In this document: positions 27,228-34,344 of the stretch, piece after piece
Numbering within the stretch: position 1 is the stretch's first letter
Layout of the letters: each line of letters opens with the position of its first letter
DNA from: Candidatus Pacearchaeota archaeon
GTDB lineage: Archaea; Nanobdellota; Nanobdellia; Pacearchaeales; GW2011-AR1
Assembly (NCBI GenBank): GCA_050124795.1
Contig: JASFEO010000009.1
Coordinates: 1 to 46,218, forward strand
Reading direction: 5' to 3'
DNA length: 46,218 nt
The notes under the pieces: model-generated
Seen by the model: the letters and a program-made list of their open reading frames with translations, nothing else
What the model was told of the DNA's origin: nothing
Databases searched by the model: none
Program-made: the position numbers and the translations under genes

Positions 27228-28196
27228 ATGGTACAGATTATAGATAGTTATAGCGAAAGTAATATGGATTATGCAGGTTCTAAATTTGAACTTGAATCTG
27301 AAGCTTTGGGTCAATCTTTTACCGGTGATGGTAGCGTATTACATAGTACTGTTTTTTATTTAAAAAAGGTCGGTTCTCCTACTGGAAATATACACGCATA
27401 TATTTATGCACATTCAGGTACTTATGGTACATCATCTTTACCGATTGGTTCTGCTCTTGCAACTTCTGATGCTGTTGATGTAACGACAATAGATACAGAT
27501 TATGAACTTGTAGAATTTACATTTAGCGGTGCAGATAAAATCACTTTGGAAAATGAGACTTATTATGTTTTAGTCATTGAGGGAGTAGGGACAGATGTAG
27601 ATAATTGCATCTTTTATACAATGGATACTTCTTCACCGACCCATGATGGCAATTTTTGTTCCTATGTGGGTGGTTTAGAATGGACTGCATTTTCTGCTAA
27701 TGATTTAATATTTTATGTTTATGGAGATGAATCTTCACCCTCTCCATCCGAGAGTCCTTCTCTATCGCCTTCAGCATCATTGTCTCCTTCTGCTTCCGAA
27801 AGTGCGAGTGAGTCTCCAAGCTTATCACCTTCAGCCAGTTTATCGCCATCAGCATCACCTTCTTCTTCTGAGAGCCCTTCACTTTCTCCATCTGCAAGTT
27901 TGTCGCCGTCAAGTTCAGAATCACCAAGTCTTAGCCCTTCAGCATCTCTGTCACCCTCAAGCTCGGAATCACCATCTATAAGCCCTTCAGCATCAGAATC
28001 AGCATCTTTATCGCCATCAGCCAGTTTAAGTCCTTCTGCTTCCGAAAGTGCGAGTGAGTCTCCAAGCTTATCACCTTCAGCCAGTTTATCGCCATCTTCA
28101 TCAGAATCAGCTTCGGCAAGCCCTTCCCCATCTGCTTCACCTTCTCCAGCATGGCATCAAAGACCGCCAATAGTAATCATAAGGGGAAAGGCATGA
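27228..28196 (+). CDS. Tail-region protein: beta-sandwich N domain plus about 139-aa Ser/Pro tract
   Basis: GQSFTG...FYLKKVGSPTG...F.FS....L....YYVLV, then SX repeats 27732-28148. Confidence 0.75.
   Translation: MVQIIDSYSESNMDYAGSKFELESEALGQSFTGDGSVLHSTVFYLKKVGSPTGNIHAYIYAHSGTYGTSSLPIGSALATSDAVDVTTIDTDYELVEFTFSGADKITLENETYYVLVIEGVGTDVDNCIFYTMDTSSPTHDGNFCSYVGGLEWTAFSANDLIFYVYGDESSPSPSESPSLSPSASLSPSASESASESPSLSPSASLSPSASPSSSESPSLSPSASLSPSSSESPSLSPSASLSPSSSESPSISPSASESASLSPSASLSPSASESASESPSLSPSASLSPSSSESASASPSPSASPSPAWHQRPPIVIIRGKA
27785..28096 (+). repeat. Exact 66-bp direct repeat (27785-27850 and 28031-28096) within a Ser/Pro tract
   Basis: TCCTTCTGCTTCCGAAAGTGCGAGTGAGTCTCC...TATCGCCATC present twice. 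Confidence 0.9.
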
Positions 28197-29110
28197 TAAG
28201 TATAGCAATACCAAGCCGAAATGAGATATTTCTAAAAAAGACTGTCGAAGATATACTTGAAAAATCAATCGGGGATATTGAAGTATATCCTATTTTGGAC
28301 GGATACGATATTCCAAAAGATGAAGTAGTGGAAGATGATAGAGTCAAATATATAAGATTACCTAAAAACTACCATACGCAGAAAAGACAGGCAATAAACC
28401 TTGTAGCGTCAGTATGTAATGGTGATTATATAATGAGCTTGGATGCACACTGTATGCTTGACTATGGATGGGACGAGATAATTGTAAAGGATTTAGAAGA
28501 AGACTGGATTGCAATACCCAGACGCAATAGGCTTGACGCGGAGAATTGGTGCATACAAAAACAATGCGATGACCGACCGCCGATTGATTATGAATATCTT
28601 ATGTGGCCTGTAAAGTTTAAGCCAATGGGATTTCATGGTTTTAAGTGGGATGATAGGACACTTGAAAGAGAGGATATAAAAATAGATGACACGATAACCT
28701 GTCAGGCTTCAATGTGGGTAATGCATAAAAGCTGGTATAAAAAGAATGAATTTATGCAGATAAAAGGATTTACTGGATGGGGTATGGAAGCTGAAGAACT
28801 TTGTTTTAAAACATGGATGCGCGGTGGCAGGGTGATAACGAATAAGAATACCCGGTATGCACATCTGCACAAAGGCAGAGAATACGGCAGGATGTATTTT
28901 CTCCCCAAAAAGGATACAAGGAAGTGTAATGCCTATGCTTTTGATTATTTTGTAAATAACAGGGATAAAAAAAGGATACATGATTTTAGCTGGCTCATTG
29001 AAAAGTTTATGCCAATGCCTAACTGGCCTGAAGATTGGGAAAATCAGTTATACAGCAAAAAAGTACAGGATATAATAAAACAACAGCTTATAGATTATCC
29101 AATTGAATAA
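28193..29110 (+). CDS. GT-A glycosyltransferase with polypeptide-GalNAc-transferase-like motifs
   Basis: SIAIPSRNE, LDG, LDAHC...GW, WGMEAEELCFKTWMRGG, YAHLHK; ATG 28193 overlaps the upstream stop (ATGA). Confidence 0.88.
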   Translation: MISIAIPSRNEIFLKKTVEDILEKSIGDIEVYPILDGYDIPKDEVVEDDRVKYIRLPKNYHTQKRQAINLVASVCNGDYIMSLDAHCMLDYGWDEIIVKDLEEDWIAIPRRNRLDAENWCIQKQCDDRPPIDYEYLMWPVKFKPMGFHGFKWDDRTLEREDIKIDDTITCQASMWVMHKSWYKKNEFMQIKGFTGWGMEAEELCFKTWMRGGRVITNKNTRYAHLHKGREYGRMYFLPKKDTRKCNAYAFDYFVNNRDKKRIHDFSWLIEKFMPMPNWPEDWENQLYSKKVQDIIKQQLIDYPIE

Positions 29111-29726
29111 GACTTTAGAATATATAATAAAAAAATATAAGATAGATTTAAATAAGAGGTCTCCGTTTAATATAGACTGCGGCAGATGGGAAAAGCTCCC
29201 TAAACTTTTTAAGGAACTTAAATTTAAGGTCGGTGCAGAAATAGGAGTCCTTAAGGGTCAGTATTCGGAATTACTATGCAAGACTATACCGGGACTTAAG
29301 ATGTACTGCATAGACAAATGGAAGAAATACCCTACTTATAGGGATTTCAGAAGCCAGGATACACTTGACGAATACGAGCGGGTAGCAAGAAAAGTACTGG
29401 CAAGATATGACTGTATAATAATGAAAGCATGGAGCATGGATGCGGTCAAGGTCATTGATGACAGCAGTCTTGATTTTGTCTGGATTGATGCAAACCATGA
29501 ATTTCAGCAGGTTACAAACGATATAGCGGAATGGTCAAAAAAAGTAAGACCTGGCGGTATAGTTGCAGGACATGATTTTTTTAGGAGTGCTAATAGTAAG
29601 CTATATGTTCAGGTAAAAGACGTTGTGCAGGGCTGGACATACGCTTATGGTATTCATCCCTGGTTTGTATTAAAGGATGAACGTACAGTGTCAAGGGGAA
29701 TAAGCTGGATGTGGGTAAAAGAATGA
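29103..29726 (+). CDS. Class I SAM-dependent methyltransferase (Methyltransf_24-like)
   Basis: GAEIGV..G, LDFVWIDANH, PGGIVAGHDF. Confidence 0.88.
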   Translation: MNKTLEYIIKKYKIDLNKRSPFNIDCGRWEKLPKLFKELKFKVGAEIGVLKGQYSELLCKTIPGLKMYCIDKWKKYPTYRDFRSQDTLDEYERVARKVLARYDCIIMKAWSMDAVKVIDDSSLDFVWIDANHEFQQVTNDIAEWSKKVRPGGIVAGHDFFRSANSKLYVQVKDVVQGWTYAYGIHPWFVLKDERTVSRGISWMWVKE

Positions 29727-32493: not shown

Positions 32494-32710
32494 CGACCCA
32501 GTCAGTACCGAGCATGTCGCCATCATTGACTTTCCAGACATACAGTTTTCCATCTGGTTTATGAATCATGAGCCATTGACCATTTAGAAAACCATAATAA
32601 TTATTATTTTTCCATTCAAGTTTTGTGACTTTTTTACCGTTTATTACCTGTCGCATAGCTTCTGGAAAGTCCATTTTCTTTGTAGATAATATATCCGTTA
32701 TATTGTTCAT
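32486..32710 (-). CDS. DUF2829 / Tad2-like protein (start 32710 or 32674)
   Basis: MDFPEAM..VINGKKVTK.EW...W.....DMLGTDW matches the family pattern; fills an otherwise empty gap. Confidence 0.7.
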   Translation of the reverse strand: MNNITDILSTKKMDFPEAMRQVINGKKVTKLEWKNNNYYGFLNGQWLMIHKPDGKLYVWKVNDGDMLGTDWVVI

Positions 32711-32739
32711 ATTAATAATATTATATTTTTTCAAATTTT

Positions 32740-34344
32740 ATGTCAACTTATGATTTAAGTATAATAATTCCAGCCCGCAATGAGATGTTCTTAGGGCTCA
32801 CGGTTGAAAACCTGCTCAAAAACATTAGAGGGAATACTGAGATAATAGTGATACTGGATGGATACGATACTAAAATCCCTGAAATCCCCAAAGCTCCTAA
32901 TATTACTTTAATTGGACATACGACGTCGGTTGGCCAGAGAGCTACCTGTAATGAAGCAGCGAGATTATCACAGGCAAAATATCTTATGAAAGTAGATGCT
33001 CATTGCAGTTTTGATGAGGGTATAGATGTAAAGATGATAAAGGAAATGCACGATGACTGGACCATGATACCCATAATGTATAATCTGCATGCTTTTGACT
33101 GGGTATGTCAAAAATGTGGACACCGTCTATATCAGGGCCCCACTCCCCCCAAGTGTGAAAAATGTGGCGGTGAAATGAAACGTGAAATATTGTGGAAGGA
33201 AAAAAGGAATCCTGAATCTACTGCATACAGATTTGACAATACCCTGCATTTCCAATACTGGGGGGCTTATAAAAAGAGAGCCGAATATAAAAAACAGCTA
33301 AAAGAGACAGGCGTAACTGAGACTATGTCCATACAGGGCAGTTGTTTTATGTGTACCCGAGACAAATGGTTTGAGCTTGATATATGTGATGAAAAGCATG
33401 GAAGCTGGGGACAGCAAGGGACGGAAGTATCGTGTAAAACATGGCTGTCGGGCGGCAAAGTAAAAGTAAATCATAAGACCTGGTATGCTCACATGTTCAG
33501 GACTCAGGGTGGGGATTTTGGTTTTCCCTATCCTAATCCTGGGATAATGAGCGCACGCAGATATTCAAGAGACCTATTTATAAACGGTAAATGGGATAAG
33601 GCTAAATATCCCCTGTCATGGCTTATTGACAGATTCAAGCCAGTTCCTGATTGGGATGTGACAAAAGGAATAGTCTATTACACAGACAATGAGCTTGACG
33701 AAGGCATAATGAAGATGTGCCAGAAACAGTTAAAGGAAAGTGTAAACGGTTCAAAAATAATATGTGTTTCATTAAAAAAGACACCGTTTGGAGACCATAT
33801 AATAATGAATCTTGAGCGTGGATATTTGACTATGTTTAAGCAGATACTAAAAGGTTTAAAGACACTTGATACGGATATAGTTTTTTTATGTGAGCATGAT
33901 GTACTGTACCATAAGAGCCATTTTGATTTTGTACCGCCTAAAAAAGATACATTCTATTATAACGAAAATGTATGGTTTCTCAGGTGGAGTGACGGTCATG
34001 CTCTGCATTATGACGCAAAACAATTATCTGGTTTATGTGCTTACAGGGATATTTTAATAAAACACTTTGAGGAAAGAGTGGCACTTGTAGAAAAAGAGGG
34101 ATTTTCAAGAAGGATGGGATTTGAACCTATGACGCATGGAAGAATCAAATGGCAAAATATGTATAAGTGCGAAGGCTTTAAATCTGAATTTCCAAATATT
34201 GATATAAAGCATGGTGGTAATTTGATAAGGGCAAGATGGAAAAAAAAAGAATTTAGAAATCAGAAATTTACTAAAGGTTGGACGGAATCTGATGTCATAC
34301 CCGGCTGGGGAAAAGCAAAGGAATTAATAAGAGGTAATATATAA
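32740..34344 (+). CDS. Two-domain glycosyltransferase: ppGalNAc-T-like GT-A with Zn-ribbon insert, plus group B GT domain
   Basis: [22 protein letters not shown] insert, [24 protein letters not shown] half GIVYYT...FKQILKGL...FLCEHDVLY. Confidence 0.88.

Follow-up and report, generated by a model that had tools for sequence, protein, structure and literature searches.

The contig JASFEO010000009.1 of assembly GCA_050124795.1, analysed here as one stretch of 46,218 bp (the window), is the genome of a siphophage that carries a cassette of putative glycosyltransferase (GT) and methyltransferase genes inside its tail module. The window is one entire contig and is present as a viral genome in IMG/VR. 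A 137-bp direct repeat at its termini (positions 1-137 and 46082-46218, 99% identity) indicates that it is a complete phage genome of ~46.1 kb, terminally redundant or circularly permuted. The cassette lies between the genes of the Dit and the tail-tip proteins (Table 1). Its genes are co-oriented, except for that of a Tad2-like protein. Its junctions with the neighbouring genes leave little room: the stop codon of the gene coding for a protein of 322 amino acids (aa) overlaps the start codon of the first GT gene (ATGA), and the tip gene begins 2 nucleotides (nt) past the stop codon of the last one. We call these two enzymes GT1 and GT2; enzymes of the second glycosyltransferase family are referred to as family-GT2 enzymes.

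Membrane-like segments are absent from all cassette proteins. The maximum hydropathy over 19 residues is 1.13, with 0.92-0.96 for GT1 and GT2, which fits a modification taking place in the cytoplasm, where virions are assembled. Scans of the cassette proteins with Pfam, PHROG and NCBIfam revealed no initiating pair of the GT-B GtfA/GtfB type, and no polyprenol-type transferase was found in the cassette. An earlier note on this DNA had described the two GT27-like domains and Ser/Pro tracts. Its inventory was incomplete: the methyltransferases, three further GT-A domains and two of the four virion proteins with tracts had escaped it, and the sequence had not been recognised as that of a phage.

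Four virion proteins of this phage harbour Ser/Pro arrays with the basic unit S-P-S-x-S-x, in which Ser occupies every second residue. The three cleanly delimited tracts consist of 50-56% Ser, 15-17% Pro and 0-2% Thr. The tract of the 386-aa protein has 55% Ser, 15% Pro and 43 Ser-Pro-Ser (SPS) tripeptides, and its Ser residues are found at 142 positions of one phase vs 19 of the other. The corresponding values for the 322-aa protein are 69 and 5. In the tip protein, the tract comprises 371 residues (about residues 150-525), and the core that follows matches Pfam Prophage_tail (E 1.8e-32) and PHROG tail families. The tract repeats are only 60-80% alike at the DNA level, so their composition is upheld at the level of the protein and does not stem from a recent duplication. 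The 322-aa and 1254-aa proteins share no detectable likeness in their N-terminal domains (BLASTP E 4.7), and these domains have no Pfam match; that of the 322-aa protein has no PHROG match either. The 386-aa protein is a candidate head fibre or decoration protein, and, judging from their sequences, all four tract proteins are candidate glycosylation acceptors.

Table 1. Features of the window: cassette and tract-bearing proteins, followed by other phage genes
Feature	Position	Strand	Description
322-aa tract protein	27228-28196	+	~160-aa N-terminal domain and 149-aa SPSxSx tract (residues 163-311); directly after Dit
GT1, 305 aa	28193-29110	+	Soluble GT-A, GT27-like; DxH at residues 84-86, WGxExEE at 196-202, His224
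Methyltransf_24-type S-adenosylmethionine (SAM) methyltransferase	29103-29726	+	Pfam PF13578, E 5.3e-15
Class I methyltransferase	29711-30685	+	Pfam Methyltransf_23, E 1.1e-6; C-terminal ParB-like segment, PHROG match at residues 283-322
215-aa member of unnamed GT-A-fold family	30682-31329	+	Assigned by alignment and fold
223-aa paralog, same unnamed GT-A-fold family	31323-31994	+	Assigned by alignment and fold; DNA repeat ties it to 30682-31329
169-aa small methyltransferase-like protein	31984-32493	+	No Pfam match
82-aa Tad2-like (Thoeris anti-defence 2) protein	32486-32734	-	Pfam E 1.5e-8; sole opposite-strand gene within the cassette
GT2, 534 aa	32740-34344	+	N half (to ~nt 33660) GT27-like; C half (33661-34344) third copy of the unnamed GT-A family
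Tail-tip protein, 1254 aa	34346-38110	+	~150-aa N domain, ~370-aa SPSxSx tract, Prophage_tail (Tal-like) core
386-aa protein after capsid gene	19602-20762	+	~95-aa N-terminal domain and 291-aa tract (residues 96-386)
Tail tube protein	22474-23580	+	Phage_tube_2, E 1e-23, residues 8-252; 55-aa C-terminal tract (residues 314-368)
HK97-type capsid protein (Phage_capsid)	17751-19049		Pfam
Tape measure candidate	24160-26445		Large open reading frame between tail tube and Dit; assigned from position alone
Dit	Directly before 27228-28196		PHROG
N6_N4 DNA methylase	4218-4916		Pfam; separate from the cassette methyltransferases

GT1 and the N-terminal half of GT2 are paralogs, as the earlier note had claimed (BLASTP, 30% identity over ~300 residues, E 3e-37), and the motifs that it had reported are all present. 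DAHC is encoded at nt 28442 (residue 84 of GT1) and nt 32995 (residue 86 of GT2), and YAHLHK at nt 28856 of GT1 corresponds to YAHMFR at nt 33484 of GT2. Between them, WGMEAEELCFKTWMRGG at nt 28778 of GT1 has a WG...GG counterpart at nt 33406 of GT2. The start of GT1 at 28193 is backed by its homologues, whose consensus opens at the same MxSIxIPSRNE. The N-terminal 100-120 residues of the two enzymes match Glycos_transf_2 (PF00535) with 51.3 and 41.3 bits, for a gathering cut-off of 23.3. Pfam detects no Ricin_B_lectin or other further domain in GT1 or the N half of GT2, which agrees with the lack of a ricin-type lectin domain that had been noted before.

The closest sequences of known structure are eukaryotic polypeptide GalNAc-transferases (ppGalNAc-Ts). 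A phmmer search of the PDB with GT1 returned 14 sequences at E<=1, 11 of which are ppGalNAc-Ts, the best being GalNAc-T4 (E 1.9e-6); the other three (E 0.039-0.33) are not. For the 534-aa protein, the 12 best matches are all of the GT27 type, counting 8uhv, whose sequence is labelled just 'Glycosyl transferase' but which is titled T. gondii GalNAc-T3. The likeness to ppGalNAc-Ts exceeds what chance would produce. We also built a family profile from 40 GT1 homologues. Its 15 best distinct PDB sequences are all ppGalNAc-Ts (E 4.9e-8 to 1.8e-4, over profile positions 3-243), and generic family-GT2 enzymes begin at E 1.8e-3, ~4 to 5 orders of magnitude worse than GT27. GT1 also has a sub-threshold match to PF11397 'GlcNAc' over the DxH region (E 0.0056, 16.6 bits vs a cut-off of 21, 27 residues).

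The conserved residues point in the same direction. In GT27 enzymes, the metal-binding motif has the form DxH, and a downstream His completes the metal ligands. The DAHC motif had been described as standing in place of DxD; its presence is not in doubt, but DxH is GT27's own metal motif rather than a replacement. D84, A85, H86, C87 and H224 are invariant in 40/40 family members, and in the HMMER alignment D84-x-H86 and H224 fall on the DxH and GH(V/I) positions of GalNAc-T4 and T10. The equivalents in the N domain of GT2 are D86-A-H88 and the His of YAHMFR. The Gal/GalNAc-T motif of GT27 is WGGENxE...W.CGG; in the corresponding region of the family, W196, G197, E199, E201, E202, G211 and G212 are conserved, and the G-E-N core is altered. 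The stretch after H224 is strongly conserved (K227, G228, G232, R233, Y235) and has the lowest model confidence; it thus behaves in the model as expected of a mobile active-site loop. GT2 also contains an insertion missing from GT1, with a CxxC...CxxC pattern reminiscent of zinc ribbons or rubrerythrin (residues 123-147, nt 33106-33180; NCBIfam NF033497, E 9.5e-5; Pfam DUF7129, E 0.0031).

The predicted structure of GT1 was compared with known folds. Its AlphaFold (AF2) model has a predicted local distance difference test score (pLDDT) of 91.8 and a predicted template modelling score of 0.91. The best 50 matches listed by Foldseek are all GT27 enzymes (E 1e-15 to 2e-12). A structural aligner run over 48,161 representative chains ranked mouse GalNAc-T1 first (Z 24.7, 270 aligned residues, root-mean-square deviation 3.2) and Toxoplasma GalNAc-T3 second (Z 24.2), with 270-271 aligned residues and deviations of 2.8-3.2 for these two top folds. 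The next folds come after a gap, namely chondroitin polymerase (Z 17.8), heparosan synthase (17.1) and SpsA (16.7). The nearest structural neighbours are therefore ppGalNAc-Ts, and glycan- or lipid-acting family-GT2 enzymes come second, ~7 Z units lower. The GT27-like signature proposed from the letters of the DNA is thus supported by sequence, profile and predicted fold. On these criteria, the nearest known relatives of both GT27-like enzymes are the eukaryotic polypeptide GalNAc-transferases, and by their sequences the two enzymes are too distant to be filed as GT27 members. A prediction of the complex between GT1, Mn and a 48-residue tract peptide, made without control runs, scored 0.00 and argues neither for nor against binding.

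We then looked at the gene neighbourhoods of GT1 relatives in other viruses. We found 178 viral contigs encoding such a relative and kept the best 80; as one of them is the window, the following counts cover the other 79 loci. In tblastn searches at 1e-5, the structural proteins of the window are almost absent from these loci (major capsid protein 2, Dit 1, tape measure 0, Tal/tip core 0). By contrast, the GT27-like domain is found in all 79, Methyltransf_24 in 62 (61 in a second count) and the unnamed GT-A family in 57-59. The cassette is kept while the structural genes are not, which indicates that it is mobile between tailed phages that are not related in other respects. With overlapping matches collapsed, 61/79 loci have two or more GT27-like copies and 48/79 a GT27-like/GT-A fusion.

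Open reading frames (ORFs) with at least five SPS tripeptides, hereafter SPS ORFs, accompany the cassette in most of these loci. A looser criterion based on Ser/Thr/Pro tracts (59/80 loci) was dropped as it caught Thr-rich and off-frame ORFs. As a control, we used 79 loci anchored on relatives of the terminase of the window (43-86% identity). An SPS ORF is present in 56/79 GT-anchored loci vs 0/79 controls and, among loci of at least 12 kb, in 46/54 vs 0/28. It is mostly located downstream: in 36 of the 41 loci with at least 2 kb past the cassette, an SPS ORF starts within 2.5 kb, with a median gap of 49 bp. Upstream, an SPS ORF ends within 2.5 kb in 19 of the 74 loci with at least 2 kb on that side. 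The earlier proposal that the Ser/Pro tracts are the acceptors is thus supported, albeit indirectly, by a tight and conserved linkage.

We propose that the cassette O-glycosylates the Ser tracts in the cytoplasm and that elongation and O-methylation of the sugars follow, yielding a mucin-like coat; we give this reading a probability of roughly 0.6. The GT27-like enzymes would use a divalent metal bound by the DxH...H triad and a nucleotide sugar to O-glycosylate Ser residues of the (S-P-S-x-S-x)n tracts in the host cytoplasm. Elongation of the glycan would next fall to the three copies of the unnamed GT-A family, and O-methylation of the sugars to the three or four SAM methyltransferases, among them those of the Methyltransf_24 type. 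The product would be a stiff, protease-resistant and dense mucin-like brush, borne by extended linkers at the head, along the tail tube and at the tail tip of the virion. Its role might be stiffening, shielding or adhesion. In this scheme the acceptor would be a peptide, the GT27-like enzymes would act first, and the methyl groups would be placed on sugar rather than on protein.

The order of action may be different. The 215-aa and 223-aa proteins and the C half of GT2 form a family with a conserved E-x-D-x-x-Y motif and no Pfam, PHROG or NCBIfam match. The model of this family (pLDDT 94.9) has a plain GT-A fold with a best Z of 13.1. Its fold matches are family-GT2-type enzymes (Z 12-13) with nucleotidyltransferases close behind, and a search of PDB sequences with its profile gave one weak match (E 0.014) that is probably spurious. 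On the basis of this model, the 215-aa and 223-aa proteins are candidate elongating glycosyltransferases. Alternatively, the tracts might be glycosylated with this family as the initiator, and the GT27-like enzymes would extend the glycan or act on an already glycosylated peptide, as do follow-up GalNAc-T isoforms. The unnamed family is about as conserved as the GT27-like domain (58/79 loci) and is fused to the second GT27-like domain in 48/79, and two GT27-like paralogs side by side in 61/79 loci suggest a division of labour. We nevertheless consider this order quite unlikely, since the only fold-neighbour families with a known polypeptide acceptor are those nearest GT1, while the fold matches of the unnamed family are confined to nucleotidyltransferases and GT-A enzymes of a generic kind, at Z 10-13 and without a gap.

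The methyltransferases of the cassette are of several kinds. The Methyltransf_24-type enzyme is, from its sequence family, likely a sugar O-methyltransferase. The nearest cluster of the 169-aa protein in a language-model-based protein Atlas was automatically named 'Methyltransferase family protein' (470 members, 90% from viruses), and the structural neighbours of this protein are Methyltransf_24 and Methyltransf_3 O-methyltransferases (template modelling (TM) score 0.75-0.78). The class I methyltransferase with a ParB-like tail is a rare accessory, present in 3/79 related loci. One might suppose that such enzymes hypermodify the phage DNA with glycosylated or methylated bases as a protection against restriction. 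There are indeed several methyltransferases, one with the ParB-like tail and two with the PHROG label 'DNA methyltransferase', and a Tad2-like anti-defence gene is located inside the cassette. Yet the common methyltransferase is of the Methyltransf_24/CmcI type and is found fused to a GT, the ParB-like fusion is confined to those three loci, and the phage has a separate N6_N4 DNA methylase. A Pfam scan of 20 other ORFs turned up neither a base-hydroxymethylase nor a nucleotide-modifying gene, and DNA modification would leave the SPS linkage unexplained. We therefore regard this possibility as very remote.

Cassettes related to that of the window also occur in cellular genomes. Among species-representative genomes, 28 contigs encode a GT1 relative. 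Sixteen of them are metagenome-assembled genomes (MAGs) of the Patescibacteria group, namely Saccharibacteria, Collierbacteria, Zambryskibacteria, Paceibacterota, Parcubacteria and Levybacteria, and a few others are labelled Pseudomonadales, Gammaproteobacteria, Anaerolineae or Methanosarcinales. An SPS ORF was found in 9/28 of these loci within the 10-kb flanks examined, which expanded cassettes (at least 10 kb) fill. Such MAG-contig cassettes (e.g. L096, L101 and L102 among L084-L109) have up to 3-4 GT27-like and up to five Methyltransf_24 copies; the unnamed GT-A family and that of the small methyltransferase are also represented several times.

In a search of five whole Patescibacteria genomes, a degenerate SPS pattern gave matches in four of them, whereas the reversed control gave 0-1 matches. 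In one genome (G005) the cassette contig is too short to include the positions of the matches, which hence lie on another contig. Three Patescibacteria contigs have a giant SPS ORF directly after the cassette. These ORFs consist for the most part of SPSxSx repeats and encode 3985 aa with 458 SPS tripeptides (L204, 1159-13113; G002:C45), 1263 aa and at least 2662 aa (the latter two on L205 and L206). The genes in the vicinity of the Patescibacteria cassettes code for TatC, RecG, an M48 peptidase, a surface Ig-like protein and one phage-family ATPase (a strong match to a family of unknown function). In a test for prophages, the HK97-type capsid family PF05065 was found in 0/5 Patescibacteria genomes. 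The Patescibacteria copies may be cellular surface-glycoprotein loci or cryptic elements.

These cellular copies bear on another explanation, in which the cassette modifies a glycan of the host envelope or a lipid-linked sugar, for receptor masking, superinfection exclusion or release, and the SPS tracts are flexible, unmodified linkers that only happen to share the variable tail region with it. Many phage GT-A and family-GT2 enzymes act on host polysaccharides, and both the cellular neighbours of the cassettes and the lack of an HK97-type capsid in the five genomes would be in line with such a function. However, the cassette of the window is part of the tail module, has the same orientation and is joined to tract genes by overlapping junctions, and the SPS linkage holds across phages with unrelated structural genes. 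The lack of a membrane segment or a polyprenol-type transferase and the ~7 units of Z that separate GT1 from the glycan- and lipid-acting folds also argue against it. We find this explanation improbable.

Several points nonetheless weigh against the glycosylation of the tracts by the GT27-like enzymes. The case for it is built from sequence, predicted fold and gene linkage. The identity of these enzymes to GT27 members is only 14-21%, and the nearest neighbour of a modelled fold is no proof of the same acceptor. Both the C-terminal lectin domain and the type II membrane anchor of GT27 enzymes are missing, and WGGEN is altered to WG-M/Q-E-A-E-E, so that the donor sugar cannot be inferred from this motif. 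As for the linkage, no SPS ORF was seen in 23/79 loci, 15 of which are shorter than 12 kb and eight of at least 12 kb, and 5/41 loci with enough downstream DNA have none within 2.5 kb. The terminase control covers the head region better than the tail and is imperfect for tail genes. Finally, no SPS-coding DNA was detected in one of the five genomes searched whole (G001).

The family of GT1 is large. A profile search of 1.84 billion cluster representatives returned 319 sequences at E<=1e-30, 702 at E<=1e-10 and 2463 at E<=1e-3. Among metagenome proteins, some of 1000-1350 aa have two or three GT27-like domains in tandem (P0124, P0129-P0131, P0135, P0136). The Atlas provided further relatives, which we treat as leads only. 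Its clusters nearest to GT1 are 89-100% viral, and in one cluster of 238 members (96% from viruses) this GT is fused to RMNT_CmcI/Methyltransf_24. The next nearest by structure are bacterial fusions of family-GT2 and LanC-like domains (TM 0.80) and eukaryotic ppGalNAc-Ts (TM 0.79), and 98% of one related viral cluster matches PF11397. A tblastn search of 50,697 phage records with GT1 gave no match at E<=1e-5; at E<=5 there was one spurious 45-residue match, in a ribosomal protein gene. No match to a cultured phage was obtained.

The bin that contains the window has a size of 1.06 Mb and a completeness of 90%, and this size is typical of the Patescibacteria group. The host of the phage is probably a member of that group, although binning is no proof of host. 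Further Pfam matches in the window correspond to a portal protein and a PG_binding_1 protein that is likely the endolysin. Two YopX paralogs are encoded at opposite ends of the genome (10629-11114 and 44432-44899), with DNA stretches 78-87% identical. Short segments at gene starts are repeated in the early region (5002-5050, 7167-7215 and 9174-9222; 5245-5288 and 9426-9469). The 167-aa product of 43150-43653 has a domain that is unusual for a phage, CAP (cysteine-rich secretory protein; Pfam E 1.1e-11). The G+C content is ~29-35% in the early and late flanks (1-12000 and 38000-46218) and 36-44% in the region of the structural module and the cassette (12000-38000).

The GT1 family is present in at least 178 uncultured phage contigs, and many of the relatives have a link to Patescibacteria, a group for which hardly any phages are known. 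Should the tracts be glycosylated, the cassette would represent a route to dense O-glycosylation of a simple repeat in the bacterial cytoplasm, useful for glycoengineering. In that case it would also mark a large phage group that infects ultra-small bacteria, and it would offer a concrete approach to how the GT27 and GT60 enzymes arose. A broader and more speculative idea, which we find doubtful, is that the enzymes of phages and Patescibacteria form a large, hitherto undescribed clade that is the prokaryotic sister of the eukaryotic GT27/GT60 initiators. It would act on (S-P-S-x-S-x)n 'mucin domains' of up to thousands of residues, and the portable cassette would give phages of ultra-small bacteria a methylated mucin-like coat. 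If so, cell-surface glycoprotein systems of the hosts may have been the source or the recipients of the cassette, and an ancestor of this kind, cytoplasmic and either prokaryotic or viral, may have given rise to the eukaryotic enzymes.

To our knowledge, phage-encoded glycosylation of virions is known in no group beyond mycobacteriophages. Our literature search, which left out most subscription journals, found no report of it elsewhere, nor any description of phage enzymes resembling GT27 or of virion proteins with SPS repeats. Freeman et al. reportedly studied mycobacteriophage virion glycosylation in 2023. In the mycobacteriophages Che8, Corndog and Myrna, phage-encoded GTs modify virion proteins, including the C-termini of capsid and tail tube proteins, according to two papers that cite this work (PMC12363180, PMC12619734). 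The tail tube protein of the window also carries a C-terminal tract, a putative acceptor. The two systems otherwise differ. The capsid and tail tube proteins of Che8 end in short tails without long Ser/Pro arrays, and its GT genes are located at the genome end, whereas those of the window are in the tail module. The enzymes are not homologous in any specific way: in hhalign comparisons, our family profile gave probabilities of 0.2% against the Che8 proteins gp109 and gp110, and of 28% against gp108, for the generic N-terminal GT-A part only.

The alternating-Ser arrays of the tracts are also reminiscent of Gram-positive serine-rich repeat glycoproteins of the Fap1/GspB type, which are glycosylated in the cytoplasm by the soluble GtfA/GtfB pair and extended by GT-A enzymes. 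One of the weak PDB matches of the window enzymes (E 0.0044-0.0074) is 5hea, the GalT1 enzyme of this pathway. In contrast with that pathway, the GT-B pair was not found, the modelled cassette GTs are of the GT-A type, the arrays have a regular Pro, and the carriers are virion proteins and not secreted adhesins.

The cytoplasmic polypeptide alpha-GlcNAc-transferases of family GT60, soluble GT-A enzymes of the DxH type that are related to GT27, are another possible parallel. The match of GT1 to the GT60 family PF11397 is sub-threshold and covers only the 27 residues mentioned above, and there is no solved GT60 structure among its neighbours.

The resemblance to GT27 itself is the strongest, as these enzymes (GalNAc-T1, T2, T4, T10, T12 and Toxoplasma GalNAc-T3 among them), which transfer GalNAc in alpha linkage from UDP-GalNAc to Ser/Thr of polypeptides, are the nearest by sequence, profile and fold. 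The shared features are the metal triad DxH...H, a motif of the WGxE type and, past the His, a conserved loop. As in a mucin domain, the tract that is the putative acceptor is of low complexity and rich in Ser and Pro. GalNAc-Ts favour Pro at -1, +1 and +3 of Ser or Thr, and in SPSxSx each Ser has a Pro at -1, +1 or +3. The phage enzymes differ from GT27 members in being cytoplasmic and phage-encoded, in having neither lectin domain nor membrane anchor, and in their altered WGGEN. The tracts differ from GT27 acceptors in that their hydroxylated residues are almost purely Ser and follow a strict every-second-residue pattern. Mucin-type O-glycosylation is regarded as a eukaryotic trait. In the phages studied here, an enzyme family other than that of the mycobacteriophages, and nearest to the initiators of eukaryotes, accompanies very long Ser/Pro arrays in the form of a cassette.

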